Assembly (NCBI GenBank): GCA_963702095.1
Contig: OY969706.1
Location: 224,001 to 288,000, forward strand
Length of the DNA stretch: 64,000 nt
Direction: 5' to 3'
Source of the DNA: Candidatus Bathyarchaeota archaeon
GTDB lineage: Archaea > Thermoproteota > Bathyarchaeia > Bathyarchaeales > Bathycorpusculaceae
In this document: piece after piece, positions 9,750 to 37,037 of the stretch
How the letters are laid out: every line of letters begins with the position of its first letter
Numbering within the stretch: the stretch's first letter is position 1
The notes under the pieces: model-generated
Told to the model about the DNA's origin: nothing
What the model saw: the letters and a program-made list of their open reading frames with translations, nothing else
Database searches by the model: none
Position numbers and translations under genes: made by a program

Positions 9750-9750
9750 T

Positions 9751-10323: not shown

Positions 10324-10346
10324 GGTCCGAATCCCACCCCCTGCAC
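10324..10346 (+). repeat. att-like tRNA(Leu-type) 3' fragment
   Basis: GGTCCGAATCCCACCCCCTGCAC = T-loop, T-stem 3' strand and acceptor 3' strand. Confidence 0.75.
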
Positions 10347-10385
10347 TTTTATAAGTAAAACTACAGGGGGTTTGTCCTGGCGATG

Positions 10386-10526
10386 TTATGCTCGAGTCTC
10401 AAAATCAGAATACAAAGTGCACTCAGAACATGCACATTTTACGCTTAATTCCTTCACAATCTCCGCTTGCGAGAAGCCCAATCCTTCGAGCTTTAGCAAT
10501 CCCGGCCTCCGCTCAACCGTATCCAA
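10386..10526 (-). pseudogene. Truncated HTH gene remnant
   Basis: Hand translation LDTVERRPGLLKLEGLGFSQAEIVKELSVKCACSECTLYSDFETRA, then stop. Confidence 0.45.
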
Positions 10527-10837
10527 GCTAAAGCACCCCCATGAAATTGCAGAAAAACTTCAAACCTGAGCTACGCTGAGCCAATAGCTTGAATTTTTTT
10601 CTTGTTCTTTTTTAGCCAATAGTTAAGCGCCTTTCCACTTTCTCGTAAAGACAACAATAGAGAGCCCGCTCTCAAGACACCACAAAACGAGACAACGATA
10701 ACTAAATAATTAGTGAATAGAAATAAAATTTTCGCTTGGTTCTATGGGTTTGCTGAGTCTCTGGATACATGATTTTAGTTAAGCTAAAAAACAAACGAAA
10801 ACCTCGTCAAACCTTCCTTTAATAAAAAAGGTGGTAT

Positions 10838-10875
10838 GCGGGCGACATCTCCAAGCTCAGAGGGTTCAAATCCCA
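10838..10875 (+). repeat. att-like repeat copy
   Basis: GCGGGCGACATCTCCAAGCTCAGAGGGTTCAAATCCCA, closely matching 35358-35407. Confidence 0.75.
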
Positions 10876-11013
10876 TCTTTGAGCCTTAATAATTAACCAG
10901 TACTTATACTTCTAACTAGATGTAACCATAACTTTATTTTGATAATATATTGATAAGCAAATTAGCTATAATTACTACTTGACATTTATTAGTGGTACTG
11001 GCATGTATAATTT

Positions 11014-11325
11014 GTGTTTATTATGGCAACACCCGAAGTAGGTAAAAATAGAAAAATTGTGGCAAAAGTAACCCCTGTAAAAGAAATACCTGAAGGCAGA
11101 AAAAGAACTAAAGTCCCCGAGTATGATGAAGTGTTTAAACAGATTGCCGATAGCCCAGATAAAATGTTTAAAGTTGAGGTTGAAGGCAAAACCGTGAGGT
11201 CAATGTACGCTCCATTTACATTCCGGATAAAATTATACAATAAGAATCCTGACAGAAAGTTCAACCTAGCAATTAGAATACGCAATAAAGAAGTCTATGT
11301 AGTAAAATTGGATAGAAAAGAATAA
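11014..11325 (+). CDS. Hypothetical basic protein
   Basis: 103-aa ORF in operon with the next gene. Confidence 0.55.
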   Translation: MFIMATPEVGKNRKIVAKVTPVKEIPEGRKRTKVPEYDEVFKQIADSPDKMFKVEVEGKTVRSMYAPFTFRIKLYNKNPDRKFNLAIRIRNKEVYVVKLDRKE

Positions 11326-11327
11326 AG

Positions 11328-11645
11328 GTGAAGGACTTGAAAGATAGAAATGAAGCTGTGTGGGGACAGGTAGAAAAAATTGGTAAAGGCACAAAAGCGA
11401 ACTATGATTCTGTTAGGAAGACCATTACATTCTGCTTCAATAGAAGTGCTGAGACATCCAGCGATATTTTGAGAAATTCTCGACAACAACTCATTGAAGA
11501 ATTAAAAGAACGAGGTTTTGCAAGCCGCATGAAACCTAATGGTGAAATAGTCGTAGATAATATTGCAAAGGAAGATGTGGTTCTTGAAAAGAAAAATCAC
11601 AAACTTATAATACGGTTGAACAGGAAACAAACTGGAGAAAAATAA
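11328..11645 (+). CDS. Hypothetical protein
   Basis: 105-aa ORF 2 nt after the previous stop. Confidence 0.55.
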   Translation: MKDLKDRNEAVWGQVEKIGKGTKANYDSVRKTITFCFNRSAETSSDILRNSRQQLIEELKERGFASRMKPNGEIVVDNIAKEDVVLEKKNHKLIIRLNRKQTGEK

Positions 11646-11988
11646 CCAAAAAAAGGATGCAAAAAAAACTAAATATTCTTTGTCGGTATCGACAGCTAAG
11701 TCATAGACCAAACTAGACTACGACCAAGGCATTTAAGAAGAAATAAGTCTCTCTGAAATAAAGAGGGTAATAAGGATAAAGGGTCTTCTGGAGTATCGTT
11801 TCCTTTCGGACCTATTACAAAATAAAAATGATTTCTAAAAAAAGAGAAAGTGTAGGTTAAGACTGTGGGAAAAAAATAGGTGCCAGATCATATTAAAAAG
11901 AAAGAGGGTTTTTGGGGAGATTTGCCCCCTCAACTTTATAGAAGCCAAAGTGCTAAAAACAAGCGAGCCTATTTGAAAAAAGAGATAA

Positions 11989-12021
11989 GCGGGATATGTC
12001 TCCTCGGTTTTGAGGGTTCGA
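11989..12021 (+). repeat. att-like repeat copy
   Basis: GCGGGATATGTCTCCTCGGTTTTGAGGGTTCGA aligns ungapped with 35358 onward. Confidence 0.65.
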
Positions 12022-12220
12022 GGCAATAAAAGTGCATAGGATGTTTTTACTACCTCCTAACAAGACGGTGAATCGTGTCAAGAAAAACCGCTGTACTTCA
12101 GAAGTAGTCTACTAAAGCAGCTGGGTTAGACCCAGAAAAGATATTAACTAAGATGCATTTGTTAAAAATGGAGTCTCCTTAAAAAAGGCGAATTTCTCAT
12201 AGAAACGATTTGCAATAGGA

Positions 12221-12394
12221 ATGTTAAACATGAAGGATTTTAAGTGTTCAGTTTGTGGAAAAAATACTGAGAAAATATGGGAAAATAAGGAGAAAACAAA
12301 ATACGGTATGAAATGCACCAGAGGACATAATAACAAAGATGGAAAAACAGAGTATCCCACGTTTATTGTTCCAGCTGAGGAGTTGGAACCATGA
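12221..12394 (+). CDS. Small Zn-finger protein
   Basis: Hand translation, 57 aa, with CSVC...CTRGH. Confidence 0.55.
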   Translation: MLNMKDFKCSVCGKNTEKIWENKEKTKYGMKCTRGHNNKDGKTEYPTFIVPAEELEP

Positions 12395-12583
12395 GTCACG
12401 TAGTAACAGAATCTTTCGATGGTTCTGTACGTCTTCTTCTTACTTGAGCAAGTTTCTCTCCAGGTGGAAAATCGTCACGTAACCCTTATTTTGTTATAGC
12501 GGTTACAGGTTGGGCTTTTTAAAACAAGTTTTTGACTTTTCCTTCGATGATATTTCGCATAGTGATGAGGAAAAAGAGGGGTT

Positions 12584-12629
12584 GCGGGTGATATCTCCTC
12601 GGCTGATGGGGGTCGAAGCCACCCCCCAC
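12584..12629 (+). repeat. att-like repeat copy
   Basis: GCGGGTGATATCTCCTCGGCTGATGGGGGTCGAAGCCACCCCCCAC. Confidence 0.7.
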
Positions 12630-13012
12630 AAGAGGGCGATGCTCAATTTTATATGCCAGTTACGCAACTGGAGGATCGGTAATCACTATGCAAACTGCTC
12701 CCTTAAAGTCTAAACGGGGTAGGGAATCGTACTTGAAGTCAGATGCCCACCCCCCGCTCTAGCAACGAGTTAAAGCTGTTTCTTTCGATAAAAAAGGGAA
12801 ATGCTTGTGATATCTCCACTTAGATTATGCAACTTTAATGGCTAAGTCTTCCGTTATGCCGAGATTTGCGCGTTTAATCACATATGTATATAAGATACTA
12901 TGCACATAACATGTTATGCTCATAAGCACTAAAATACAAATAGAACATAACACAATAACAGAATTAACTTCTGAAGAAGAAAATACCAAAATAAACAAAG
13001 TGGCGATAAATT

Positions 13013-13147
13013 CTGGGTCGAATTAGCGTAGATATTTCAGACGAACTAGAAAAACAACTAAGATTGAAAACCGTTGAGCGATTTGGCGGGAAAAAAGGCG
13101 ACCTGTCCCGCGCGGTTGAAGACGCAGTAAAAAAATGGGTATCTTAA
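13013..13147 (+). CDS. Ribbon-helix-helix (CopG-like) protein, CTG start
   Basis: GRISVDISDELEKQLRLKTVERFGGKKGDLSRAVEDAVKKWVS; paralog at 28350-28505. Confidence 0.7.
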   Translation: MGRISVDISDELEKQLRLKTVERFGGKKGDLSRAVEDAVKKWVS

Positions 13148-13212
13148 AACAATAATGCATCTAAGAATTCAATTTACAACGTTTTTGTGCTCTTTCAAAG
13201 AGAAAGGAATTA

Positions 13213-13279
13213 GGGGAAGCCGACTAGCCTCAACGCATGGCTAAGATTGCGTAAGGAACTAAGTAGTCGTGGTCCCCCC
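13213..13279 (-). ncRNA. Candidate structured RNA/DNA hairpin (copy 1)
   Basis: Nested stems; compensatory changes relative to the copy at 28238-28304. Confidence 0.45.
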
Positions 13280-13483
13280 GGTTTAGAAGAGCAGAGTATG
13301 GTAATCCTAACATTATTTGAGATGAGATATGTGATTAATAAAAAGTTGGAACTTGTCTTCCTCGATAAAGACGGTAAGTTTTACCCGCTAGACGAGGTTG
13401 ACAGCGCCGAGTTAGCAAAGGGACTTGAAAGTATCTCTAAAGAAATTGCATCAAGACTTAGGTTGCAGAAAGAACAAAGATAG
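13247..13483 (+). CDS. Small hypothetical protein (true start probably later)
   Basis: FLDKDGKFYPL...ELAKGLESISKEIA; decayed paralog at about 28050-28190. Confidence 0.55.
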   Translation: MRKELSSRGPPGLEEQSMVILTLFEMRYVINKKLELVFLDKDGKFYPLDEVDSAELAKGLESISKEIASRLRLQKEQR

Positions 13484-13979
13484 GTTAATGTTAATGCTTA
13501 ATAGAAAAAAAATGGGCGCTATCAGTCAACCGATTAAAGCTCAAAAACAGATACTGCTAAAACCCAAGATTGATAATCAAAGGCTAACTACTGGGACAAG
13601 TTTTATTGCAAACGCGATATACGCGTTGCATGTTGTTCGAAAAATTCCATTTATAGATTATATGATTCTAAAGACAAACTATTTAGAAAATCGAGAGTCT
13701 TATCATCAAAAAATGAATCATGCATTTGCTAGCCGAACAGGCAACACATCCATTGAAGCGTTTGATAACCTGTTTAGTGCTGTAGAATTTAATGATACTT
13801 CGACACTTTGGGAAAGAAAAGCAAGTCTTGCCAAAAGCATTAACGATAACAAGATAGATGTTATGGGCGCTCTGATAGGCGCAATTTCCTCTTACATTAG
13901 CTCTATTGGAGTTTTCATCCCAATGGTACTCACATTCTACGAGATTGGCATGAAAGCATTCTTTGATTTCTTTTCTTAG
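13425..13979 (+). CDS. Hypothetical protein
   Basis: ORF with hydrophobic C-terminus; start uncertain. Confidence 0.4.
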   Translation: MKVSLKKLHQDLGCRKNKDRLMLMLNRKKMGAISQPIKAQKQILLKPKIDNQRLTTGTSFIANAIYALHVVRKIPFIDYMILKTNYLENRESYHQKMNHAFASRTGNTSIEAFDNLFSAVEFNDTSTLWERKASLAKSINDNKIDVMGALIGAISSYISSIGVFIPMVLTFYEIGMKAFFDFFS

Positions 13980-14211
13980 GTTTCTTGGGATTTCTTTTGT
14001 TTGGAATCTATGAAGGTTACTTTAGCCAATGTAGACTCAAAAGATTGGTGCAGGAGCACAAGGATTACAGCAGTGAATTGATGAGATTACCCTTCTTCTT
14101 GAAAGAAAGAAAGATTTGAGAATTCGATAAACCGCTCTAATTTTAAAGAAATTTCTATGGAACAAGAAAGTCTACGGAGTATGAACAATTGGAAACAATT
14201 GAAATGTAGAA

Positions 14212-14545
14212 ATGATTGAAACACAGGAAGAAAGCGAAAAAGACGATGAAATTATCTTCAAGCTGCTTGTGAACGGAAAAACTTTCTTGGGCTAAGAGCA
14301 CACTCTACAGCAGTTTGGACGATATACACAATGTTTGCCGAGAAAAATATAAAGGATATGGCCGCGAATTGCTATCGTTCATGGAGAAAAACGCCAAGAA
14401 CCACGGTGCAACTTCAATGACTACCTGTGATTTTGACTCTTGTAATGATGAAGCGGCTAGTTTCTTCAAGAATATGTGTTATGATATTAATCCCTCTCTA
14501 AGGGGGTTAAACGGTTACTTAAAAGGACGAAAACTGTTCAAATAA
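14212..14545 (+). pseudogene. GNAT acetyltransferase, frameshifted
   Basis: KGYGRELL and A..FF...Y GNAT motifs; 5' part is in another frame. Confidence 0.55.
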
Positions 14546-14803
14546 GCTATCAGGAACATTCTGGCTAGGTCTTAGACTATTCGTGGAGTTTTTTGGCAGA
14601 AAAGCCTGATTTTATAGTCTCTATTTCCTGTGTTTTCTCGGGGTGGGGATTTAGGGGTTAAAGAGGATGGATTTATTGATTGTAACCCTCTTTGAGCACT
14701 TAGAAACAGTTGTGTTAACAGATTGGCTATCTGTGTTTGAAGCTTTTTCTTGAATACAAAGGGATTACAACAAAAATGAAATAGAAACGCGGCTAACCCG
14801 GCG

Positions 14804-15034
14804 CTATGGGGCACCAAACCATTTTTTGAACCATATGATTGCTTCTTTATCGCCGTCAGCATAAAAGAAGCTGCCGTATTCATTTATTTGAGGAAAATCT
14901 GTTTTTGCCTCGTATATAACCTTATTGAAAAGTTTCTCCACTTCTATTACGTTTTGTTTTCCTGAATCAATTATTTTAGATCCAAGTATTTCCCACATTT
15001 TGTCAAAGAGTTTGCCTTGCTGTTTTTCACTCAT
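14804..15034 (-). CDS. Hypothetical protein
   Basis: 76 aa with GGTGA ribosome-binding site. Confidence 0.5.
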   Translation of the reverse strand: MSEKQQGKLFDKMWEILGSKIIDSGKQNVIEVEKLFNKVIYEAKTDFPQINEYGSFFYADGDKEAIIWFKKWFGAP

Positions 15035-15443
15035 TCAAGTCACCTTAGGCTGATTTATTCTCTGCTTTGCCAGAATAAGGACTTTTACTTATGCTCGGTA
15101 CAATTCGTCTTGATACCCCGACGCACGATAGCACGATACCACTTTTCTATTTTATTTCTGCTTCCGCTGTATTGCCTCCAACCCGATTAATCTTTATTTT
15201 CACTGGACCTTGGAGCTTGGCATCGGCAACATATATTACTGTTTATAGACAGACAACGTAGTGGTTGTTATTTTTTCAGCGGCAAGCTCGAAAAGAGCTT
15301 TTGAAGAACCGAAGCTTTCATTTTGAATGTTGGTGGTAAGTAACATTAAGTAATATCGGCACACTTTAGAGTATACATAAGGAAAATCGCCATCCAAAAA
15401 AGTTAACGTTGGCAGCGTCCTTTTCAGATTTGAGGGGAATAAC

Positions 15444-15932
15444 TTGACAAAAACTGATGATCTTTTATTTGAGCTCAACAGATCAGTCGCCGATTATATG
15501 AGGCGTATTCATCCGTTCAATTATAAGAACAAACCATTCTGTTTAATCGACAATTACGTCGCATTACCCAACATTATGTGTGATGTATGCGGAGATTATC
15601 CCGAACTGGAGATTTCAATCATTGAGAGCGCGGACGGCCACACACTACACGCAGGAGATGACTGTATTGATCGTTTGACTGGGCAGAATGTTTCAGAGTG
15701 GATGAAGAATTTTAGGAAAAAACGAGAAAACATAATTTCAAACAGAAAATACATTGACCAACTAACATTGCTTTTCGAGGCGTATGATAGAAAGGAGCCC
15801 TCAGTTCAGATACCTGAGGAGGATGCTAAAAAGCTCAGAGCAATGTTAAATCAATTGAGCAACGGCCTAAACCTCACTGCAAAACAGCAGCAACTGGCAG
15901 ATGCATATCTAATCGTAACAGTCACAGCATAA
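15444..15932 (+). CDS. Hypothetical Zn-binding protein
   Basis: CDVCG...GDDCI motif. Confidence 0.6.
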   Translation: MTKTDDLLFELNRSVADYMRRIHPFNYKNKPFCLIDNYVALPNIMCDVCGDYPELEISIIESADGHTLHAGDDCIDRLTGQNVSEWMKNFRKKRENIISNRKYIDQLTLLFEAYDRKEPSVQIPEEDAKKLRAMLNQLSNGLNLTAKQQQLADAYLIVTVTA

Positions 15933-15942
15933 ACTTTGGCCT

Positions 15943-16971
15943 TTAGATGCTGACGTGAAATGCCCAATGCATGTATGCACTAATATCACGTGAAAGCACT
16001 AACGAAGGTTCAACGTAGCAGTGCAGACTACATTTTTGGCAGTTTTCGATTTTTTTCCAATCAAATCCTGAAACGGCGCCCTTAATGCCGCCTTCAAAGA
16101 TAGAAGTGCTGCTTGCGTAATCGTTGTGGACATAGCAGGGCAAAACAACCTTCCCGTTTGGGTCGATGTTTATCATGGTCCAGGGTTTGCATTGCCAGTT
16201 TTTCTCGTTAGCCATCACTTTGAGGTAACCGATTGAGTTGGCAAGGGGGTAGCCTTCCCTTTTCATTTCAATAAGTCTATGCGCTATTTTTGGTATTCTG
16301 CCATTGGCAGGTGCCGACGTGTTAGCGTTGCAGTATTCGTGGGCGACGGCTACGGATATTTTTGTGCCCAACTCTTTGGCTAGCGTCACCAAGCTTTCTA
16401 TATCATCAACGTTTTCAGCCATTACGGTGGTGTTAATGGTTACGGGAACTTTTTCTTTTGCCGCATTTATGCCGTCTACCGCTTTTCTAAAGCTTCCAGC
16501 CACGCCTCTTATGGCGTCGTGGGTTTTCTCCAGCCCATCTAACGAAACGTAAATGACGCCGTTAATGTAGGGAGCTATCTCGTCTATTCGGGATTCAAGC
16601 AGTGTACCGTTAGTTATCAGGCTTGTATGCAGGGGCAACGATCGGGAAAAAGCAAGAATCTCCACCAAATCCTTCCTAAGAAGCGGTTCACCACCCTCAA
16701 ATGCAACTCCGCAAGCGCCCGAATTGTAAATTTGCCTCAGAATTGTTTTTTCCTGCTCTAAACTCGAATCTCGGCTGCGCCGTCTCCAAAAGGGGCACAT
16801 CTTGCATTTTAGATTACAGTTGTAGGTTAGCTTGTGCCCGCAGAAAAAAGGAACCCTAACACCTAACAAATTTGAGACTAACCCATTATAAATCCTGAAG
16901 CCCATCCGCACGTTGTCCAAGAGATGGGGGGAATTTTTTTCCAAAGAAAAGTCATTAGAAACCTGTTTCAT
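15943..16971 (-). CDS. Radical SAM protein with C-terminal SPASM/twitch-like domain
   Basis: CNLKCKMC, GGEP, TNG, VSLDG; C-terminal CKPW...PC...CQKCSLHC. Confidence 0.9.
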   Translation of the reverse strand: MKQVSNDFSLEKNSPHLLDNVRMGFRIYNGLVSNLLGVRVPFFCGHKLTYNCNLKCKMCPFWRRRSRDSSLEQEKTILRQIYNSGACGVAFEGGEPLLRKDLVEILAFSRSLPLHTSLITNGTLLESRIDEIAPYINGVIYVSLDGLEKTHDAIRGVAGSFRKAVDGINAAKEKVPVTINTTVMAENVDDIESLVTLAKELGTKISVAVAHEYCNANTSAPANGRIPKIAHRLIEMKREGYPLANSIGYLKVMANEKNWQCKPWTMINIDPNGKVVLPCYVHNDYASSTSIFEGGIKGAVSGFDWKKIENCQKCSLHCYVEPSLVLSRDISAYMHWAFHVSI

Positions 16972-17183
16972 GCTTGAGACCCGATGAAGTTTGAAATCGA
17001 TAAAACGAGTGTTGTTTTTCAGTAAAGTTAGTCTTGCGTTTCCTTTAAACCTAACGTTCTCTCGCAACTTATAGCCTTCCATTTTAGTGCTTACACGAAC
17101 CCATCGCAATCAAACAATCCCACGTTTCTTTATATGACGCTTTTCTTTTTTTGAATATTTTAAACAAAAAAATAGATTATGGT

Positions 17184-17342
17184 TTATTTCCACAGCTTTT
17201 TTCCAGTCAGCAGCCAAATGACTACAAAGATTACGGCAATCACGAGCAGTATATGTATCAATGCGCCTACGCCTGGCAAAGCAAAGAACCCAATCAGCCA
17301 AAGTATCACAACAATGATTGCAATCGTCAACCAGGTATTCAT
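17184..17342 (-). CDS. Small membrane protein, lmo0937/DUF5670-like
   Basis: Hand translation MNTWLTIAIIVVILWLIGFFALPGVGALIHILLVIAVIFVVIWLLTGKKLWK. Confidence 0.8.
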   Translation of the reverse strand: MNTWLTIAIIVVILWLIGFFALPGVGALIHILLVIAVIFVVIWLLTGKKLWK

Positions 17343-17356
17343 AGCAAACGCTCCAA

Positions 17357-17647
17357 CTAAGCCTCAACTACTGGTCTTAGGTACATGTGAAGCTGATCTT
17401 TTGATACTTTTAAGTGTAGACCCTTCTCTGTCCAGCGTGCAACCCCTTTTTCTAAGGCTGAAACGGCTAACATGTTTCGTACTCCACCTTTCTTTGCGCC
17501 AAGTACTGATTCAGCTATGCTCTTTTCTAATTCAATTTCAAGATGAGTAATCTTCCACTCTTCAGGATCAATTTCTATTTCTTTTACTTTGCCGATTTTC
17601 TCGTCTAACGCAAAAACATCTTTATCCATAAATTCTTTACTTTTCAT
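17357..17647 (-). CDS. PRC-barrel protein
   Basis: KDVFALDEKIGKVKEIEIDPEEWKITHL pattern. Confidence 0.85.
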   Translation of the reverse strand: MKSKEFMDKDVFALDEKIGKVKEIEIDPEEWKITHLEIELEKSIAESVLGAKKGGVRNMLAVSALEKGVARWTEKGLHLKVSKDQLHMYLRPVVEA

Positions 17648-17719
17648 ACTATTTACCCCTCCTCGGTATACCCCTGATTTGAGATGTCATAAACATGGTC
17701 ATTGGCAGAGTTAAGCGCT

Positions 17720-17743
17720 TGTGACTGCGAGCCCACACCGACA
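17720..17743 (-). promoter_or_regulatory. Palindromic regulator site 1
   Basis: Sense strand TGTCGGTG-N8-CAGTCACA, 5 nt before TTAA, upstream of the PRC-barrel gene. Confidence 0.7.
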
Positions 17744-18049
17744 GACTGACCGTTGAGCCTTAGAAAGAATTTGAAACTTGAAAACAAATAAAAAATGAAT
17801 TCTCAGGTTAGTCTTCAGCTTTTTCAATCAGGCTCAAAAACTTGTTGTCAGAGGTTGGTTTTTCTCATAAAACGCTTCAATCTTCATCTCAAAAGATTGC
17901 CAAGTGATGATGTTTTAATTTGGGAGAAAACTGCTTCTAAACAGCTCGGAAGGCTATTTCGACTAATATCGTGTTCCCCGGGATGTGGACCAAAAAGCGC
18001 ACGGCTGCACACAGTTCTGGCTAAATAAAAAAAGAAAGAAAAGTTAGGT

Positions 18050-19045
18050 TTAGGTTACTGCAGTGGTTTGATCGATTATTTTTGCTTGTGGAGCATTCGT
18101 CTTTACTGATGCTATGCCATTTTCAGCTGACTGTTTGGATAGGTAGGATTGGCTTACAGCAATTATCTGTCCAGTAGCAGCTTTCAAACGGAAACGATAT
18201 CTATCAGGTGCATTGCATTGAATTTCAAAAACCGGGGATTCAACAATTTCAACGTGGTGAACGGGTATAGTTCCACCTGTTGTGTAATCAGTGGTCTTAG
18301 CTATTGGAGCATTCTTTTTTATTGAAGCAATACCTTTTAGAGCATTCTCTCTTGTCCCGTACGAGTGGCTTACAGCAATTATCTGTCCGTTAGCAGCTTT
18401 CAGATGGAAACGGAATCTACCGGCAATATCACATATAACCTCAAAGACACCTGTCACTTTCGCTACTACCGGAATCGGTTCAGTTATCACTTCAGTGGGC
18501 GGCAATGGTTCCTCAACTGGTAAGATGGGTTCTGGGATTTTATCAGTTGCGTGACCCTTCTGTGTATGAGCATTCATTTCGTAAGTAGTCATGAAGCCCA
18601 ATCCGCATATAGGACATGTTAGATCCATATTTGGCATAAGTACGCCATTCAAAACGTGTATTATGCCGTTGTCTGTTACAATGTCTGTGTTTATCATGTG
18701 TGCATCATTGATTAACGGGTTATAGTGAGAAGTCCACCAGTGGGCGGCGTCAATTTTAACCTCTTGGCCTTGGAAAGTTTTCATGTTTTTCATTTGACCT
18801 ATTTCGTCTACTGTGAACTTTCCTACTACAATATGGTACATCAGAATCGCCTTGAGCTTTGGAATATTTTTCAATAGTCCCTCGACTGTACCTGCAGGAA
18901 GCTTTGCAAAAGCATCATCATTTGGCGCAAAAATTGTAAACGGTCCTTTGCGTTTCAATGTTTCAACTAATCCGGCCGCTTGGACTGCGGCTACAAATGT
19001 TGTGAAGCCCCCGGCTTCAACAGCAATATCAAATATATCTGCCAT
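18050..19045 (-). CDS. Fasciclin (FAS1) + C2H2 finger + two DUF1508/YegP domains
   Basis: TIFAPNDDAF, YHIV, NGIIHV; CPIC..H....H; two FRF.LKAA.GQIIAVS.SY repeats. Confidence 0.85.
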   Translation of the reverse strand: MADIFDIAVEAGGFTTFVAAVQAAGLVETLKRKGPFTIFAPNDDAFAKLPAGTVEGLLKNIPKLKAILMYHIVVGKFTVDEIGQMKNMKTFQGQEVKIDAAHWWTSHYNPLINDAHMINTDIVTDNGIIHVLNGVLMPNMDLTCPICGLGFMTTYEMNAHTQKGHATDKIPEPILPVEEPLPPTEVITEPIPVVAKVTGVFEVICDIAGRFRFHLKAANGQIIAVSHSYGTRENALKGIASIKKNAPIAKTTDYTTGGTIPVHHVEIVESPVFEIQCNAPDRYRFRLKAATGQIIAVSQSYLSKQSAENGIASVKTNAPQAKIIDQTTAVT

Positions 19046-28349: not shown

Positions 28350-28505
28350 GGTGAAAGAGGGGGGCAATCTTTTTTGGTTATCCATGTTATTACTGCTTCT
28401 TCGACTGCTCGGGATAGGTCGCTTTTTTCCACCAAATTTCTCCACCGTTTTCAACCTGAGTTGCTTTTCCAAGTCATCATGTATATCCACAGTTATTCGA
28501 CCCAT
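28350..28505 (-). pseudogene. RHH paralog, frameshifted
   Basis: MGRITVDIHDDLEKQLRLKTVEKFGGK, then DLSRAVEEAVITW in another frame. Confidence 0.7.
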
Positions 28506-28716
28506 ACCAATCATCTTTAGTGTTAGTTTATTGCACGGTTCCACGTGTCAAGCATATTTCCAATAAGCAAACTGCCAAACGCCGATTTTAAATTTTATTT
28601 GAGTCGTCATTTTCATTCACAACGCCTTAGCTTATTGGTTTATCAACATAAGTTACTATACACATACGTGCTTATACGCATATCTGTTTACGTCAGAGTC
28701 TATTAAGCAAGCATTC

Positions 28717-28908
28717 GAAATCGCTAAAGAACTACGCAAAGACAGCATTGAAAACGGCGTCAACGAACCAATCGTCGTTAAAGAACAAGCCATCAAATCC
28801 GCAGCCGAATCAGCAGCTATGATCCTACGAGTAGACGACATCATAACAGCCAAATCTCCAAGGGGCGGTTCAGGCGGCGGAATGCCTGGCGGCATGGGTG
28901 AAGAATAA
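28717..28908 (+). pseudogene. Thermosome 3' remnant with internal deletion
   Basis: EIAKELRK joined to [43 protein letters not shown]...MGEE. Confidence 0.85.
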
Positions 28909-29492
28909 AATTCACCTTTAAATTTTAAAATTTTCTCGTAGAAAACTCTTGATTTTAGGGGTTATTTCGCCCTGCGATTGTGCTTCTCTGGTTAGCGATT
29001 ATTCAGAGTCTATGTCTAAAGTCCATGTCAGTTCTTTGGCGGTTCAATATTGTTTACTTAGTTTTCTTTCGATGATGACCCCTCACGGGCGCTTCCATCT
29101 ACCTAAAAAAAGATAAAATCCGCCAAGATAAAAACACAACAAAATTTTAACTTAAAAGAGCATACAATCCTGCTTATGGTTAAGTTCCCAAGCGCTCTTA
29201 TGTTTTAACCTTTATTCACATACTCTTATGTAACGTAGGATTAGGAAAAGCAAACTCCACCCTGAAGGTTAAAGGATGGACGGTTCCGTCGTTGCTATAT
29301 GTTCCCGCCAAATAATTGCTCTTAATCAATTTTAGTCGAATTGACGTATTATTTGTCTAAAAATTAAAAACAGGTATAATAACTACGCTTTATCTTAATT
29401 GAACTGCGCAGATTGTATTATTCACTTATTAAAGCCCTAATTCGGTTTTTTTGGTTTAGTGAAGATTCTGGCGGGAAAATACAGGTAGAAAA

Positions 29493-30443
29493 ATGACTCT
29501 AATTCAAGAAGTTCCAAAAACACCTCAACGCTTAGTTGAGAAGTGCCCTGAATGTGCCGGCAAAAATCTTGTCCACGACTATGATACCGGCGAAACCATC
29601 TGCGGCGACTGCGGCCTCGTTTTATATGAGCAGATGTTCGATAAAGGCCCCGAGTGGCGAGCGTTTACCCAGCAAGAGAAAGCCTCACGAAGCCGAGTTG
29701 GTATGCCAACATCTTATTCAGTTCACGATAAAGGATTATCCACAACTATCAGTCAAATTGACAGAGATGCCTTTGGAAGAAAGCTTCCTCTTTCCACGAG
29801 GTTGCAGATGTGGCGCCTTAGGAAGTGGCAAATACGAAGCCGTGTGCACTCCTCTGTTGACCGCAACCTAGCACAAGCTATGGCTGAACTTGACCGTTTA
29901 TCGGGCAAAGTAAATGCTTCGCCGCCAATCAAAGAACAAGCCGCACTTGTTTACAGAAGAGCACTCGATAGAGGCTTAGTCCGTGGAAGATCCATATCTG
30001 GCGTTGCTGCTGCCTCGTTATATGCTGCTTGCCGCAAAAGTGGGTTACCCCGATCCCTTAGGGAAATCGCTGAGGCAAGTCTGGTGAATAGGAAAGATGT
30101 TGCACGCTGCTACCGTTTGCTGTTGCAGGAGCTTGATTTTCATATGCCAATTTCTGACCCTTTGACATACGTTTCGAAGATCGCTGAGAAAAATGGTATT
30201 TCAGGCAAAACACAGGGCGCTGCCATAGCGATACTTAGGGAAGCAAGAAAACAGCGGGTTGCGTCAGGAAAAGATCCAATGGGCATGGCGGCGGCTTCAC
30301 TCTACATAGCTTGTCTGCAGAATAATGAAAAGATAACGCAGAAAGACATTGCAGAAGCAGCCGGAGTCACTGAGGTTACGGTTAGAAACAGATACAAGGC
30401 GCTAAAGAAGCAGCTAAAACTTGAACTACCTGAAAAAGCCTGA
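29493..30443 (+). CDS. tfb: Transcription initiation factor IIB
   Basis: CPEC..GETICGDCG Zn ribbon; PEWRAF; two cyclin repeats; GVTEVTVRNRYK. Confidence 0.97.
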   Translation: MTLIQEVPKTPQRLVEKCPECAGKNLVHDYDTGETICGDCGLVLYEQMFDKGPEWRAFTQQEKASRSRVGMPTSYSVHDKGLSTTISQIDRDAFGRKLPLSTRLQMWRLRKWQIRSRVHSSVDRNLAQAMAELDRLSGKVNASPPIKEQAALVYRRALDRGLVRGRSISGVAAASLYAACRKSGLPRSLREIAEASLVNRKDVARCYRLLLQELDFHMPISDPLTYVSKIAEKNGISGKTQGAAIAILREARKQRVASGKDPMGMAAASLYIACLQNNEKITQKDIAEAAGVTEVTVRNRYKALKKQLKLELPEKA

Positions 30444-30744
30444 TTTTTAGCTTGTAGAAGAAGTGCAAATTGTTGCTCTTTCTTCTTCAATCACGCTATA
30501 AATAAAAACACTGCAACGTTTAGCTAAGGATCTGCTTCTAACTCAAGCTTGCACGACTCTATCTGAACTACTGATCATTAATCATACCCACCAAACAACA
30601 CTACAAAAAGCAAAAATGGATAGGTGTAGGTGCGGGTCTTTTCACCGGTTTTTTTACCCACGGGCAACCACTAAAAGGCCACTAAAAGGAAGGAATAAAT
30701 GAAACGCCTAAATACATGCGTGAACTCACTGCAAGATTGATTTT

Positions 30745-31501
30745 ATGAGTAAAAGAACTGTTAGCACATCCAATATCTTACCTTCAATTGCTGAAGAACG
30801 CAAAAACGAGCAGCCGTTGTTTGCTCGCGATAAAATGCTGCCTGCAAAACACAAATATGTTTGTTGGGTTGACGTCATGGGCTCTCAAAGCGTAATGCTA
30901 CGTTCCCTAAACATGTCAGCACACTTCCTAATGAAACTACATCTAGCTTCCTTGCACGCTCATGACGTATCTATAGAGTTATTTCCGGTTATCGATGGAA
31001 TATACGCGTGTTCATCTTCTCAAAAGTCTATCCTGACTTTTCTAAATAAAGTCAACGCAGCCCTTGCAATTACATTCATACTTGAACCAGCAGCTCTCCA
31101 CAAATTTATGATAAGAAGCGGGTTAGCATATGGACCCGTCATTACGGGAAAAGAAACATTAGCATGTGCTAACGAACTTCGACAAAATTCTAAACATATC
31201 AATCAAGTATTTTTTGGCGCTCCATTGACCCAAGCGTTTCAAATCGAAAAAAAAATCCGCGCCATTCGGTGTAACTTTACATGAATCGGTTCGGTCTTTT
31301 GCGCCAAATAAGGAAACCCCTGTGTCTGGAACCTACTGGAAATGGTGGAAACGACCTCAGGAAGATGCACTTGCATCGGAACTCTTTGATTCTCTAAAAA
31401 AATATTATGCATGGTGTTTAGAGCATACTGCAATGTTATCTTATGAGAAGGCAGATATTGAGCGGCATATTGAATTAGCAAAGGAGTACTTTTCAGATTA
31501 A
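30745..31501 (+). CDS. Nucleotide-cyclase-fold-like protein, frameshifted in an A9 run
   Basis: YVCWVDVMG, IDGIY, IRSGLAYG, FG.PL.QA..IE; the frame continues to 31501 if one A is removed. Confidence 0.5.
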
Positions 31502-31564
31502 GTGCGCTTTGTCTCTAATTTGACTAAATAACATTTGATCAAATGACACCACAAGAGGAGCTAT

Positions 31565-31816
31565 TTAATTCCCTGAGAGCTTTTTTGAGTTCCCCCTAAA
31601 AACTGCGGGAATTATTTCTCTCTCAAGTAACGAATATGCACTAATGCCTCTTGTTTCACTATTTGTCTGAGGTAATATAGTAATATTAGAGAATTTTACG
31701 GCTCATCCTTCTTGAGCTAATTCATTTAACTCCTGTTGAAACTTTGATTTTACTGAGGTTCCAAAAGCTAATTCTCCAGAGTAATCTTCCCAATAAACCA
31801 CTTTGTATTCGTTCAT
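31565..31816 (-). pseudogene. DUF4177-like gene with TGA at a conserved Trp
   Basis: MNEYKVV...LNELAQEG*AV...LLERE. Confidence 0.6.
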
Positions 31817-32024
31817 GTTATAGTCAATGGCCCCTCTGCGTTCACTATACAATTTAACACTTTGCTATCTGATGCAGTTTTTCGGTAATCAAAAGTTGTA
31901 CTTGATTATGGGAAGGCCCCTGAGATTTTAGTTGAAAATTTGGCAAACACTGAAATGCTTGTCTGCTATATTTTGTACTCGGAGACAATTTTATGAAACA
32001 TAGCCGATATTTTGATTCTCCTAA

Positions 32025-32483
32025 TTGTGGGGGCTGTATTTACAAAACAAGCAGTTACTGCTGGGGACAATGCTCCCTAAACATTTGGAAAAAAGACAAA
32101 GAATACTAATTATTTTGGAGTGCACGAGCGATTGCATACTAACTTTAGAAGTTGATTCAGTTTTGGAACACACTAACAAGCTTATTGTGAGAGTGGTTAA
32201 CCATCAAAAGAATAAACCAATCCAGAATATTACGGTTAAAGTGTTCAAGATCGAAAAAAAACCAATAACACCCGAACAATGGGTTAAAAATCTAAAAAAT
32301 GGACCTCCCTTTAAAACCTTAGTTCTCTCAATGAACACCGATAACACTGGTACCGTAACCGCCGAATTCCCTGAAGGTACCTATGAAGCTAAAGTAGAAG
32401 GATATGGGTTTAATCAGATTTGCGAATTAACCCAAAATGCTGAAGTTCTCGTTATTGAACCAAAAAAGCATTGGTGGCAATGA
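32025..32483 (+). CDS. Carboxypeptidase-regulatory-like beta-sandwich protein
   Basis: PIQNITVKV...TDNTGTV...EGTYEAKVE; true start likely downstream. Confidence 0.55.
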   Translation: MWGLYLQNKQLLLGTMLPKHLEKRQRILIILECTSDCILTLEVDSVLEHTNKLIVRVVNHQKNKPIQNITVKVFKIEKKPITPEQWVKNLKNGPPFKTLVLSMNTDNTGTVTAEFPEGTYEAKVEGYGFNQICELTQNAEVLVIEPKKHWWQ

Positions 32484-33048
32484 TGTAGTTTGCCTCTATT
32501 CCGCGGTCTCTGCAAAGTCTAATGTTCAATTTGAAATAACCGTTTTGAACTGCATCCATGTTTTCAATTGGGGGTTAGCCGAAGTCCTTTGTGCCGCTAA
32601 ACCCATATTCTCCTGTAGCTTTTCTAGCAATTTTTGGATTTAGTCCGCCTGCAGAGGCGTCGATCGCTATGACTGGGACCTGATTAACTTGAGAAGATTT
32701 AGTCTACTCGCTCGGTCGTTTTTTGCATTATTTGGAGCGGTCAAGCGCGTTTCCTAAGCAATAAAATTCATACAGTTTTGGGAGGCAATGTGTTTCTAAT
32801 TATCTAAAACTGGCTCCCACCTGTTGCTTAGTAGTAACCAACCCTATAAGCGTTATTTTATATATTTTGAGGCTTGATAATGCAACAGGCAAGAAAACCT
32901 TGAAGCTACCCTATAGCGTTTCAGCTTACAAATTCGACTTGTTCCTCATTTTCTTGATTTTCGGTCTCAGCCTTCCAGCTCTCTCTGGATTACTGATTTT
33001 CCCCTTCTCACTAATACCCTGCACCAGCAGATTAACCATGCAAGAGGT

Positions 33049-35019
33049 TTATAACGACTTTATTGCTTTCGTTGAAGAAGGTATTGATGGAGCCAGTTCT
33101 TCTCGGGAATCAGCGATCACACACTTAAGTTCATTTATACTTGTTGAGTCCAATAGAATACTTGGAGGCTTTTTGGGGTCTATGTAAATTTGGAACCAGA
33201 GTTCCAAAGTTAACACCATCCAAAAGAATTGAGAGAGATCATATTCGACTGCGGGATCAATGTCGTCAGTACATAACATATCAAATGTTTTGAGTAACTT
33301 ACTTTGGTTAAATATCCCTCTGTCCTTGAATCTTTCAGAAGATAGGATTTCAAGGATTTCTGGGCGAAGGCTCTTAACCCACTTGATTGCTGGAACAGAA
33401 CTACCAAACTTCCGTCTGGATTTACGAACAGCTTCCGGTATCAAGCCTTTAACGGCCTCTCTTAAAACGTATTTAGATATGCCTCTTCTGCTTTTCTGGC
33501 TTTCTGGCAATGACATACAAAAAAGCATGAATTCGGGGTCTAAACAAGGATATCGGGGTTCAATAGAAAAAGCAGAGAAAATCATATCCTGAGCCTGCAA
33601 AATCTCTACTATGCTTCCTATCGTTCGGTCAACTTGTGATTCTTCGGTTCGAGCAAAATTCTCAGTGATACGCGCACGGGAAATGTATTCTTGGTTTAGG
33701 AATTGTGATTCTTTTCGTGTTGCTGTTGACTCTCTAAGTAGCTTTAGTTGGTTTACTATCTTCCCAAACGTAACGTAAGACAAATCTTGATGCACTATCA
33801 TACCTATTGTTTCAACTAAAAACTTGCCAAATTTCTTTTTTTGCCAAAGGATTCTAAGATATTCATAAATCTCAACATCCCCGCTAAGATATGTATCCAT
33901 TCCAGTCCCCAAGAAAGCCACTTTTGCACGTTCGTTCCCCAACGCCCTGGCTAAACATAATGACATATAAGCACTCTCGAAGTGGCAGGGTTCTTCCAAG
34001 CAAAAAACCAATCGCTCTAACTCTTTCCGTCCGAGTGATTGATGAAGGTTCACGTAATTGACCTCGGTTTCTCGGAACCGTTCGTATTCTCTAATGTATG
34101 GTTCCTCATTTACTCCTCTGGAGTCACCCGCACTGACAGCGGAAACCAATGTTTGCGTTCCAACTTGGTTTATCTTAGCAAGTTCATTAGAAATCAAAGA
34201 AGCAATAGCTTGGCTATCAATGCCCCCGCTCATGCATGTTCCAAATTGCACATCTTTGGGTAGCATTTTCTTGGTTGTATGCTGTAATTTATCTAAGAAA
34301 AGCGAGGAATAGTTATAATTCCCCTTTTTCGGGGCTGACGGAGAGGGAAGATGCCAATACTCAAAAACCTCTGGCTTGTTTTCTCCTAAAGTAAAAACCG
34401 CATAATATCCAGGCAACACTTCCTTTATCTGGGCAAAATAAGTATCACCACTCCTAAAATGGTAACGCTGTAATAAGTATCTGCACAATAAATCATGGTT
34501 GGGTTTACGTGGGATTGTTTGGTCAATAAAAAGGGCTTTTATCTCGGATGCCAACGCATAACTGTCGCCGTTTGCCGTATAAAATAGCGGCTTACTTCCT
34601 AATCGGTCTCTGACAGCAAACAACTTTTCCTGTGTTGAATCCCATATGCAGAAGGCAAAGACTCCGTCTAACTGTTTTATGCAATCTATACCATTGATTT
34701 CATAGGCTTTTAAGACAAGTTCGGCATCTGAGTAAACTGTAGTCGCGTTTTTATCAAGTTGTTCTTTGAGTTCACGACTATTGTATAATGTTCCGTCAAG
34801 GGTAATCCAAATGTTTTTTTTCTTGTTGCAGAGTGGTTGGTGAACAAACTTAGAACCCCTAAAAGACGCAACATTTCCGATCGCTACTTTTGAATCTAAA
34901 AACCAGCCGGAATCATCGGGTCCTCGATGTTTGAGAGCTTGACACATTTTACGTACTAACTCGTAGGATCTACCTGAATCATACCCTAAGAGAGCGACAA
35001 TCCCGCCCAAACATGTCAC
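33049..35019 (-). CDS. Asparagine-synthetase-family protein with divergent glutaminase domain
   Basis: HRGPD, RDRLGSKPLFY, ASEIKAL, SGGIDS, RYPCLD, KYVLREA. Confidence 0.85.
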   Translation of the reverse strand: MTCLGGIVALLGYDSGRSYELVRKMCQALKHRGPDDSGWFLDSKVAIGNVASFRGSKFVHQPLCNKKKNIWITLDGTLYNSRELKEQLDKNATTVYSDAELVLKAYEINGIDCIKQLDGVFAFCIWDSTQEKLFAVRDRLGSKPLFYTANGDSYALASEIKALFIDQTIPRKPNHDLLCRYLLQRYHFRSGDTYFAQIKEVLPGYYAVFTLGENKPEVFEYWHLPSPSAPKKGNYNYSSLFLDKLQHTTKKMLPKDVQFGTCMSGGIDSQAIASLISNELAKINQVGTQTLVSAVSAGDSRGVNEEPYIREYERFRETEVNYVNLHQSLGRKELERLVFCLEEPCHFESAYMSLCLARALGNERAKVAFLGTGMDTYLSGDVEIYEYLRILWQKKKFGKFLVETIGMIVHQDLSYVTFGKIVNQLKLLRESTATRKESQFLNQEYISRARITENFARTEESQVDRTIGSIVEILQAQDMIFSAFSIEPRYPCLDPEFMLFCMSLPESQKSRRGISKYVLREAVKGLIPEAVRKSRRKFGSSVPAIKWVKSLRPEILEILSSERFKDRGIFNQSKLLKTFDMLCTDDIDPAVEYDLSQFFWMVLTLELWFQIYIDPKKPPSILLDSTSINELKCVIADSREELAPSIPSSTKAIKSL

Positions 35020-35183
35020 CAGTCATTTTTTGGCTCTGTAGAGATTTATATTTTGTGTATTGCTAATCATTAAAAAAAGACAATTATCGACCAGTTGATT
35101 TGTGATTGTTAGAAAAATTTAAGGTTTCTTAAAAGAAAGGTGCAAAAAATTTATACAGAACAGAAAAAAGGCAATTCATAGCC

Positions 35184-35227
35184 ATCTCCACGGCTTAAAG
35201 GCTCGAACATCCACACCGCCTGCATCA
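35184..35227 (+). repeat. att-like repeat copy
   Basis: ATCTCCACGGCTTAAAGGCTCGAACATCCACACCGCCTGCATCA. Confidence 0.65.
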
Positions 35228-35357
35228 CAGCCCTCTAAGCGCTGAATTATATAGGCTTAACACCTTGAACTGTTGATGCAGTGCTAAAGCCGCCACACCA
35301 ACCCCATAAAGAGAGAGAAAAGCAAAACAAACGTTGATCTGCTGGTAAAAGAGACGG

Positions 35358-35407
35358 GCGGGCGATATCTCCACGGCTCAGAGAGTTCGAATCCCACCCC
35401 TGCACCA
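35358..35407 (+). repeat. Best-preserved att-like site ending in tRNA 3' end with CCA
   Basis: GCGGGCGATATCTCCACGGCTCAGAGAGTTCGAATCCCACCCCTGCACCA. Confidence 0.8.
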
Positions 35408-35626
35408 AGACCTGACTTTATCGGTTGACTCTTGATTTGATGACTATCAGCAACAGCTAAGCCTGAGAATCCGAGTTACACGCAAAGTCAACAGGCGATT
35501 TTTTTCTGTATAAAGAAAGCATTAATGCTTAAATTGTTCATCACTAATAGGAAACTATTGTAGAGCCGCCTGTTTACTTTTAGGTGATTCCAAATATCAG
35601 CCTCTGTTTTACTTGCCACTAAAAAT

Positions 35627-36287
35627 TTGAAGAAACTGCTTTATCGTTCAAAATATTTCTCTTTAGTATTCTTCATCGTTTTTTTATCTACTTTTTATTC
35701 CATACAGTCAAGGTTATTTTGGTCAGATTTTTCTTTCACTTATAGTGTCACTGGTTCTGGTTATTGCAGGGTTTTCAGTAAAACAAGAGAAAACAATCGG
35801 CCCAATTACCCTGCTGATAGTTTTTGTGACTTTGTTCTTTGTTTGGTTCTTTACAATTCAAGGAAGCCGGCACAGCGAGGAACTTGTGCGTTTTTTTACA
35901 ACAATTTCTTTCTCACTTATTGGAGCCTTGATCTTTATCAACGTCATCAAAACTGAGCGAAAGAAGGCTATTGAGATGGATTTGGTATGGGGTGGTGTGG
36001 CGACTTATCTTTTGATCGGGTTGGCTTTCGCTTCGATTTACCGTTTGGTTGAATTATACGTGCCGGGCTCTTTTTCCAGTTTATCGACTCCGCCTATGCA
36101 TGATTTTTCTAATTTTATTTATTTTAGCTATTATGCGTTGACTACGATAGGTGGACTTATGACGCCCAACACCTTGCAGGCACAGTCGCTTGTGATGTTG
36201 GAGCCTATTATAGGAACGTTGTTTATCGCTATTTTGATTTCACGCTTGGTAGGCATTGTTGGGAGTAAAGAAAACCAAGCCTCGTAA
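35627..36287 (+). CDS. Ion-channel-domain (Ion_trans_2-like) membrane protein, frameshifted near 35730
   Basis: YLLIGLAFASIY, FIYFSYYALTTIGG, E.IIG.LFIAILISRLV. Confidence 0.75.
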
Positions 36288-36387
36288 TGAACCGAAAGAA
36301 TGCAAAGGATAGGCGGGTAGGGGGAGCATAATCGCGTCAAATAGTTTTTAAGTAATATGAGGTTACCTTTAGGTAAGTGTTGGTTTT

Positions 36388-36669
36388 ATGGTTGAAGATT
36401 TTGATCTTGAAGACTTTAATCTGATTGACATGAATGCGAAGAAGGTCCTGGTTGCTCTATCAGACTTTGACAAAGGATTACTGATTAAAGGGGAAATGGT
36501 ACATAAGAAAACTGGTTTAACCCCCGCCGACATAAACGATGCAGTTAGAAGCCTAAAAGAGTCCTTGCTGGTCGATATACCCGATGCCCTCAAAAACTTG
36601 CTGCCCTACGACTTCTACGCGGTGGAAATCACGGATTTTGGAAGACAAGTGCTGGAACAATACGGGTGA
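36388..36669 (+). CDS. Small wHTH protein
   Basis: TGLTPADINDAVRSL....LV...ITDFGR. Confidence 0.65.
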   Translation: MVEDFDLEDFNLIDMNAKKVLVALSDFDKGLLIKGEMVHKKTGLTPADINDAVRSLKESLLVDIPDALKNLLPYDFYAVEITDFGRQVLEQYG

Positions 36670-37037
36670 GAGGCTTCTTATTATTTTTCCTTTGTCGCTT
36701 TTCTTAATTACCCTCCAAGGGTTATTTTATAATGTAAACAAATGTAAAGCGACTCCCCTGACTCCCTAAAATAATTAAAGTAAAATGAAAAGGGGTTTGC
36801 AGATGGCCTCTCTTGGCCAACAAAGGGTCGACTCCTACCTGTCCATAAAACATAGAATGAGTTTATTGCTTCTGGATTATAGGTTATCTACGTTATGCCT
36901 CTTTTTGGAATAGCGCACTAATAATCAACCATTCTATCGGTACTACTCTAATAAAGAAACAAAAAGAATGGAGAGGCGTGTCGCTACTTTTCAGCAGCGA
37001 CCTCTTTGGATTTCATGTTTATCTCTCTCGAAGAATT

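Follow-up and report, generated by a model that had tools for sequence, protein, structure and literature searches.

The tRNA-Leu(TAG) locus and its repeats

The window analysed here is a stretch of 64,000 nucleotides (bases 224001–288000 of a single 2.94-Mb contig) from the genome of a Candidatus Bathyarchaeota archaeon, labelled G000. It carries a family of short repeats composed of a shared sequence unrelated to tRNA, the left arm, and a copy of a tRNA 3' end; such composite repeats are called left-arm sites below. Bathyarchaeia are abundant, uncultured archaea, whose mobile elements have to our knowledge been little described. Archaeal genes were recognized in the window with Pfam (TFB, thermosome, TrmB), and the relatives found via the integrase presented below are all labelled Bathyarchaeia or Bathyarchaeota, several of them "Bathy6". 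The G+C content amounts to 34–44% per 2-kb interval (47% in one of them) from the window start to approximately 41.8 kb, and to 45–51% beyond. Inspection of the right edge of this low-G+C region (approximately window 41000–41900) revealed no attachment-site remnant.

ARAGORN detected neither a tRNA nor a tmRNA within the window. A cognate Leu-type tRNA and a tyrosine integrase, which the initial annotation had supposed to lie upstream, are both found 10.8 kb before its start. A whole-genome ARAGORN search located an intact tRNA-Leu(TAG) gene at genome position 213073–213160 on the same strand, followed after 60 nt by an intact open reading frame (ORF) of 429 amino acids on the opposite strand (genome 213221–214507). 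The encoded protein contains a Phage_integrase domain (PF00589; 76.8 bits at a cut-off of 27.1; E = 2e-21) and an N-terminal IS1-type zinc ribbon. Its best NCBIfam matches, XerA and integron-integrase models, remain far under their cut-offs.

The two ends of one element can be assigned directly. Window positions 10323–10388 and genome positions 213135–213200 form a 67-bp repeat (89.6%) made up of the last 26 nt of tRNA-Leu(TAG) and 41 nt of its downstream flank. This pair bounds a 21.2-kb element, termed element A, that starts at genome position 213161 directly behind the tRNA gene. The distal half of element A occupies window 1..10294 (plus strand), an assignment based on the tRNA and integrase upstream, Pfam matches and a homologue in genome G005. 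The distal junction (attR; 10295..10388, plus strand) is defined by the 67-bp repeat and by the end of the G005 element at this place. It consists of a diverged left box (GGTGATA), a core reaching from the T-loop to the acceptor (10324–10348) and 41 nt left over from the right arm of an older element.

Repeat copies were searched for with exact and near-exact patterns, a repeat finder, a profile made from the window copies and an independent profile. Because a profile built from the window's own copies is circular, the independent one was composed of 23 sites drawn solely from genomes other than the host. Near-exact patterns matched at the claimed places only and not at all in shuffled sequence, the 25-mer tRNA-end pattern had no match in 100 shuffles, and the repeat finder clustered the copies as families D6, D10 and D15. 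The sequences claimed as copies in the initial annotation all lie on the plus strand at the positions given there; the array of seven to eight that they were said to form is upheld in part. Three copies are strong by the independent profile, namely those at 10838 (10819..10879; E = 5e-13), 35358 (35348..35407; E = 1.5e-8) and 12584 (12569..12629; E = 5e-8). The first comprises a left arm and T-arm followed by sequence that is not a Leu acceptor. The second is the best-preserved junction, with left arm, T-arm mimic and a Leu acceptor including CCA, of which one C is missing, and the third has a left arm and a degenerate T-arm. Two copies are weak: at 12803 (12786..12822; E = 1e-3) only a left arm is present and likeness stops before the T-arm, and at 11989 (11976..12025; E = 0.048) the left box is altered and likeness ends within the T-loop, between GGGTTCGA and the following GGCAA. 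The copies at 10324, 35184 and 36799 had no match with the independent profile (E > 1). The first of these is confirmed by the 67-bp repeat of tRNA and flank. The degenerate copy at 35184 (35160..35235) was recovered with the window-derived profile only (E = 1e-8), which is circular, and looks at best like a decayed neighbour of 35358. The weak copy claimed at 36799 (36780..36850) matched neither profile and has no support from any search.

The interval sizes given initially hold, ranging from about 110 nt to 20–22 kb, and several intervals contain no more than two small ORFs or none. Unit u2 (10880..11975, plus strand) carries ORFs 11014–11325 and 11328–11645, both without a Pfam family, and a stretch 73–80% similar to it lies behind a left-arm site in genome G020. 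Unit u3 (12026..12568, plus strand) contains a 54-aa zinc-ribbon ORF (12230–12394). Related stretches are found in a second array behind tRNA-Leu(CAG) of the same genome (genome 857431–857755; 82.5% to the G004 unit) and in G004 (79.7%), and likeness to them breaks off at the left arm in the window.

The pairs 12584/12803 and 35184/35358 are just 219 and 174 nt apart, and each includes a degenerate or arm-only member, which would suit an origin of each pair by tandem duplication or slippage of a single scar. We regard such local duplication as quite unlikely because the DNA between pair members is not repeated, and solitary sites that are arm-only or truncated in the T-loop are present in other genomes as well. 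It would, moreover, explain neither the array as a whole nor the insertion relative to genome G007 that is described below.

Counting the copy at tRNA-Leu(TAG), G000 encodes three intact paralogues of the integrase. One of them adjoins tRNA-Cys, and a consensus left-arm site with the tRNA-Cys 3' end is located 29.6 kb downstream of that gene in the expected orientation. The array behind tRNA-Leu(CAG) (genome 857323–857843) is smaller; it has a left-arm site 1.2 kb past the tRNA and, another 0.5 kb on, 24 nt that reproduce the tRNA end perfectly. An orphan Leu-type left-arm site lies on the other strand at genome position 817963–818033.

Architecture of the attachment site

The left arm consists of an A-run, GGGG and GCGGGTGAYATCTCCAC and is conserved across the genus. 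Its 15-mer GCGGGYGAYATCTCC was found in 13 of 41 genomes searched, with no match to the reversed control. Invariance of the 15-mer is a consequence of site selection, which does not apply to the conservation of the A-run, the spacing and the T-arm. A site begins with the A-run and GGGG; about eight variable nucleotides and GGGTTCAAATCCC follow, and then the acceptor strand of differing tRNAs, left-arm sites being joined to the 3' ends of Leu, Cys and other tRNAs. The anatomy proposed in the initial annotation is borne out: only the part from the T-loop to CCA is tRNA-derived, the left arm is common to the sites and unrelated to tRNA, and the T-stem 5' strand reads GAGGG or GAGAG in the sites as opposed to GTGGG in the tRNA. 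Since the T-stem 5' strand (GAGGG) is not that of the tRNA itself, identity with the tRNA begins at the T-loop. Among 30 loci no conserved gene was found upstream of the left arm, and the upstream DNA is not conserved either. Based on these features we read the left arm as the putative element-side arm of an attachment site.

The right arm comprises TATAAATAAAC, AGGGGGT and a GGYGAY box 29–33 nt past the tRNA end, beyond which lies the integrase gene, encoded on the opposite strand. The right arm is conserved in metagenome contigs anchored on tRNA-Leu(TAG). Among 56 distinct contigs of this set, the motif TATAA[AG]NAAA lies at most 25 nt from the tRNA end in 29, and a GGYGAY box starts 29–33 nt past it in 25 (background windows, 1.3%). 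The same hexamer, in the same orientation, forms the heart of the left arm. We infer that the GGYGAY boxes of both arms are putative arm-type binding sites for the zinc-ribbon domain and that strand exchange probably occurs between T-loop and CCA. On contigs G070:C26 and G002:C3, the left arm runs without interruption into core, right arm and integrase 3' end, which would be the expected look of an undivided attachment site or of a junction between stacked elements. As to the A-tract, one may speculate that it bends DNA or that the T-run on the other strand terminates transcription of the integrase gene once the element is excised.

The left arm is strongly conserved between species at the nucleotide level and has an opposite-strand T-run that could end a transcript, features that might also be expected of a small tRNA-like RNA gene or a tRNA-derived miniature transposable element. 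This interpretation is very improbable. Window 9000–42000 had no Rfam match at E ≤ 1, ARAGORN reported nothing, and RNAalifold applied to 27 sites yielded three invariant pairs, −0.74 kcal/mol and no covarying pair, and thus no conserved fold. Furthermore, the copies are located downstream of tRNAs, in tRNA orientation, and carry the 3' end of the respective tRNA.

Two other candidate explanations were rejected. The left arm does not provide the ribosome-binding site, start and first codons of a split SSV-type integrase, as the start codon is unconserved, a stop interrupts the frame shortly behind the tRNA end and the family's integrase is whole. Ten exact 17-mer matches in viral contigs, considered as a possible free form, lack the A-run, the T-arm and an integrase and were taken as chance.

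All 61 sampled genomes of the genus contain matches to the site model, up to 41 per genome, the weakest of which may be true tRNA T-arms, and the integrase family is present in 53 of them. In eight genomes, G000 (tRNA-Cys), G064, G046, G059, G065, G060, G055 and G015, a tRNA-adjoining integrase on the opposite strand is accompanied by a left-arm site 3–30 kb downstream in tRNA orientation. This arrangement suggests that the zinc-ribbon, Xer-like integrase family acts on left-arm sites.

Related genomes and the origin of the array

G007 is the closest relative (aconitase 94% identical; DNA approximately 87%). In that genome, asnB stands about 40 nt behind the same tRNA-Thr/tRNA-Leu pair, and an ion-channel gene and then the DNA of window 37833 onward come next. 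As asnB comes straight after tRNA-Leu in G007, G000 has approximately 43.9 kb of extra DNA, which starts at the end of the tRNA and reaches to about window 33015. Collinearity with G007 is lost at the 3' end of the tRNA and regained at 33016–33068, where a short core remnant, CCCTGCACCA (33016..33025, plus strand), had been overlooked in the initial annotation. It lies just before asnB, at the exact point of resumed synteny, and forms the right end of the 43.9-kb insertion. G005 has an element homologous to the first 21 kb; its integrase is 73–77% identical, and its set of distal genes is the same. This element stops at the equivalent of window 10278–10324, closing with its own copy of the tRNA end, and unrelated DNA comes after it. 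The filling behind tRNA-Leu(TAG) in G046 is a different one of 18.5 kb; the site is thus empty or differently filled in these three relatives. The orthologous tRNA-Leu(TAG) locus of G013 carries a pair of left-arm sites plus one plain tRNA-end copy.

A scan of metagenomes anchored on tRNA-Leu(TAG) returned 79 contigs, 50 of which extend at least 1.2 kb downstream. Among these 50, ten have this integrase directly after the tRNA, four have integrase fragments and ten have downstream left-arm sites. Contigs L090 and L123 share a flank that is 97.8% identical and differ in the DNA between the intact tRNA and the displaced copy, which measures 0.8 kb in one and 6.8 kb in the other. The displaced copy in L090 is a 57-nt true tRNA fragment that lacks the left arm; therefore, at least two integration systems use tRNA-Leu(TAG).

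Segment B (12823..33015, plus strand), about 20 kb of integrase-less accessory DNA delineated by its Pfam content and its absence from this place in G007, encodes radical SAM, fasciclin/DUF1508, TrmB, LPG-synthase-like, thermosome, Hsp20 and TFB proteins. In G046, segment-B-like genes (thermosome 85%, radical SAM 77%) stand between an integrase gene and the distal gene set of element A, and because of this position segment B would fit an old element of the same family. The asparagine synthase gene (asnB paralogue; 33049..35019, minus strand), identified with Pfam, has the 33016 remnant on one side and the sites at 35184 and 35358 on the other. It matches the G007 gene beside tRNA-Leu at 82.5%, and that G007 gene is also 83% similar to genome 1595521–1597407. 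The interval from asnB to the ion-channel gene, which holds the sites at 35184 and 35358, is occupied by unrelated DNA in G007.

Repeated accretion by one element family, the first of two readings offered in the initial annotation, is the one best supported by these data, since the tRNA, the integrase and the boundaries in G005 and G007 all fit it. Accordingly worded, we consider it likely that the repeats are scars of repeated integration behind tRNA-Leu(TAG) by a single integrase family, combined with decay, and that the window covers the inner part of a genomic island in a Bathy-6-type chromosome. In the proposed mechanism, integrative elements with a zinc-ribbon, Xer-like tyrosine integrase would insert at the 3' end of tRNA-Leu(TAG). 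Their attachment site would consist, in this order, of the left arm, about eight nucleotides and the T-arm mimic, the T-loop-to-CCA core shared with the tRNA, and the right arm. Integration would rebuild the tRNA beside the right arm and the integrase, and the opposite end of the element would bear the left arm joined to the displaced tRNA end. Each newcomer would enter at the tRNA and shove older elements outward, which in time would lose their integrase and most of their cargo by deletion. The predicted outcome is a series of same-orientation scars with remnants between them. Decay intermediates are directly visible: behind the right arm at window 10349–10388 no integrase remnant is left, and contigs L105 and L114 keep integrase tails. 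In L105, the tRNA is followed by a 55-aa C-terminal integrase fragment and then by a left-arm site.

Several observations weigh against serial integration. Only six of 46 short units (35 from genomes and 11 from metagenome contigs) contain an integrase remnant, and decay alone must therefore have cleanly erased the integrase in most of them. The link between integrase and sites is by association only; G012 (16 site matches), G021, G051, G057 and G075, one of them 95% complete, have sites and no integrase of the family at E ≤ 1e-20, and G007 and G068 have four integrases each and one weak site match each. At the locus itself, the distal junction of element A has just a diverged left box, and segment B ends without a left arm. 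Likeness ends within the T-loop in only six (up to 13) of 80 distinct sites, so that the exact crossover point is not fixed. Finally, no excised or circular form was seen in the viral contigs searched.

Two further features lie at the distal end of element A. A gene set at 7533–9472 (minus strand) includes a pair at 7576–9123, consisting of a 165-aa and a 319-aa ORF, the latter with a weak MarR-type helix-turn-helix (HTH) domain. The pair recurs at genome 650232–652331 and 1112432–1114405, in G005 and in an integrase-bearing region of G046, and is possibly a module conserved among elements of this family. A small zinc-ribbon ORF (9949..10212, minus strand), situated slightly inward of the distal end, has a second ribbon that resembles amino acids 46–78 of the integrase (tblastn, E = 4e-6 to 3e-9). 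It has no Pfam or NCBIfam family and its start is conserved in G005. The product could be an arm-binding accessory factor, or the ORF could be a leftover 5' fragment of an integrase gene.

The remaining cargo of element A in the window comprises a 1062-aa ORF, HTH proteins, a DUF6036 nucleotidyltransferase and an OLD-family ATPase/TOPRIM nuclease (5567–7501). Within its defence-like part (3333–7501), an HTH protein has an HVO_2833 C-terminal domain, the DUF6036 nucleotidyltransferase carries a TrmB HTH and the OLD-family nuclease is of the AAA/TOPRIM type.

Segment B shows internal repeats as well. A 33-nt periodic repeat of at least 12 units (20345–21058) lies in a 582-aa ORF (20349–22097, minus strand) with an LPG-synthase-type membrane domain as its N-terminal part. 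The 3' end of the thermosome gene (26917–27099) is duplicated 1.8 kb downstream (28734–28919; 82–86% identity), the second copy probably being a gene fragment. Inverted repeats of 125–155 bp (75–79%) are located 15 kb apart at 13014–13510 and 28025–28504, with a third copy near genome position 2921145.

Short units and known systems

Same-orientation arrays are common in the genus, with eight sites on G064:C17, five within 3.4 kb on G045:C11 and four on G059:C5. Such arrays are also what one would expect of the second reading in the initial annotation, an integron-like cassette system. In this alternative, which is partly compatible with serial integration, integrases encoded elsewhere in the cell would excise integrase-less modules of 0.5–2 kb, often with one gene, by recombining two sites and would re-insert them at a tRNA or a further site, and the locus would be a working gene-capture platform rather than a graveyard. 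In its favour, arrays with a spacing of 0.6–1.3 kb recur in many genomes, 40 of the 46 short units lack an integrase remnant, G000 encodes three intact integrases, and related units appear in different arrays. The set from genomes comprises 35 distinct units below 2.5 kb. In 15 of these, with lengths of 600 nt or more, a single ORF takes up at least 60% of the sequence, and the products are diverse, including nitroreductases, a phosphofructokinase, an acetyltransferase, an OLD-like ATPase and membrane proteins. Contigs L107 and L166 show the tRNA, the right arm, one gene and a left-arm site without an integrase, and in L122 an integrase-less unit stands between the tRNA and an older integrase fragment.

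Nevertheless, we find cassette exchange doubtful. Where related units could be aligned (G013 with G001; u3 with the tRNA-Leu(CAG) array and G004), likeness does not start or stop at the sites. The single ORFs are in mixed orientation (ten forward, five reverse), and one gene per approximately 1 kb is the normal coding density between any intergenic points. The decay intermediates described above also speak against it, as does the fact that neither a circular unit nor a pair of strains differing by exactly one unit bounded by left arms was found. The part of the cassette reading that stands is that integrase-less single-gene units bounded by these sites are common in the genus; the integrase is not of the IntI type and the sites do not fold like attC. 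The further idea that the arrays are living, shuffling cassette stores is rather unlikely. Such a tRNA-anchored gene-capture system would resemble an integron in function but differ in its components: zinc-ribbon Xer-like integrases would move mostly single-gene units by means of sites of about 70 bp, composed of left box and T-arm mimic, and one left arm would serve several tRNA targets.

A small gene behind a left-arm site is shared by locus L081 (G013:C4; unit 4537–5088) and locus L011 (G001:C3), with 80% identity between the genomes. The upstream sites carry different tRNA-type ends, and by eye the gene product looks like an archaeal histone-fold protein.

Serial integration behind tRNA-Leu(TAG), the reading preferred here, has clear precedents. 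"Gene capture" is a term in use for Sulfolobus. Two publications state, for archaea and bacteria alike, that elements with a tyrosine recombinase form arrays by repeated use of a single site (PMC6563490; PMC8371274). Archaeal tandem integration agrees with the situation described here in that tRNA 3' ends are targeted, the tRNA is regenerated, displaced fragments remain as direct repeats, elements are stacked and older integrases are lost. It differs in that neither this host group nor the integrase family with zinc ribbon and Xer-like core is named in the review, where "Bathyarchaeota" and "zinc" each have no occurrence (PMC8371274). The locus also resembles the tRNA islands of the Islander type in having an intact tRNA, a displaced 3' copy, an adjoining integrase and an empty or otherwise filled site in relatives.

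Prochlorococcus tycheposons are another example, in which each arriving element displaces the earlier ones outward and the island becomes strewn with partial tRNAs and pieces of integrases (10.1101/2020.12.28.424599). Integration at a tRNA, outward displacement, fragments of integrases and tRNAs, varied cargo and Xer-like integrases are shared by both, and the likeness concerns the model of island building. By contrast, tycheposons have a bacterial host, and their excision was shown by experiment.

Streptococcal CIMEs, which reportedly are recombinase-less units located at the attachment sites of ICEs or IMEs (accretion-mobilization), resemble the short units as att-flanked segments that lack a recombinase, lie beside an integrase-bearing element and could be mobilized in trans. 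They belong, however, to conjugative bacterial systems, and no conjugation or mobilization genes were seen at the Bathyarchaeia locus. With integrons the arrays have in common a series of short, often one-gene units that end in a conserved site beside an Xer-like tyrosine recombinase. The differences are the lack of folded attC-type sites, a tRNA gene instead of attI as anchor, mixed orientation and the location of the integrase inside the mobile element; in addition, the integrase scores far below the cut-offs of the integron-integrase models (TIGR02249, 56.9 bits versus 265; NF011946, 26 bits versus 435). A literature search for integrons or attC in Bathyarchaeota found none, and the matches listed for Bathyarchaeia together with integrase, tRNA or mobile elements mostly concern viruses and proviruses.

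Thus, island building by stacked tRNA-targeting elements is already known and is seen here in a little-studied group. We found no description of a long element-side arm beside a T-arm mimic that is common to elements aimed at different tRNAs. This two-armed site architecture and the possible movement of integrase-less units are the main points of interest. The locus and its relatives yield an integrase family and a full sequence model of its site, with boxes on both arms and the T-arm mimic, and thereby offer a defined site-enzyme pair amenable to in vitro work. The tRNA-Leu hotspot is filled differently in near-identical populations and may represent a route by which stress, defence and metabolic genes (thermosome, Hsp20, TFB, OLD nuclease, asnB, nitroreductases) enter Bathyarchaeia. 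If it is true that integrase-less units move on their own, they would be an archaeal functional analogue of integrons.

The "suicidal" archaeal integrases of the SSV type (PMC7253208) share with the family described here the tRNA target and the archaeal host. In an SSV-type element the attachment site lies within the integrase ORF, which is split on integration; the integrase ORF of the present family ends roughly 58 nt short of the tRNA and is left intact. A 6.7-kb element with an SSV-type integrase (PF16795) is located to the left of the window (L031:2128–8917; genome 206128–212917). Its integrase ORF crosses tRNA-Thr(GGT), and a 45-bp tRNA repeat is found at the far end, preceded by an N-terminal integrase fragment.

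Two further repeat families were noted around the locus. Copies of a repeat of about 150 bp (L031:1963–2114 and window 51426–51509) flank a stretch of approximately 69 kb in which the genes run in inverted order compared with G007 and G046. In those two genomes, the PEP carboxylase gene is followed by the DNA of window 48.4–51.5 kb and then by that of 46.7 to 37.8 kb in reverse. A MITE-like repeat of about 115 bp (L071:3578–3711) is present in more than 40 copies of 72–85% identity across the G000 genome, and one such copy adjoins the tRNA-Thr/tRNA-Leu pair in relatives.

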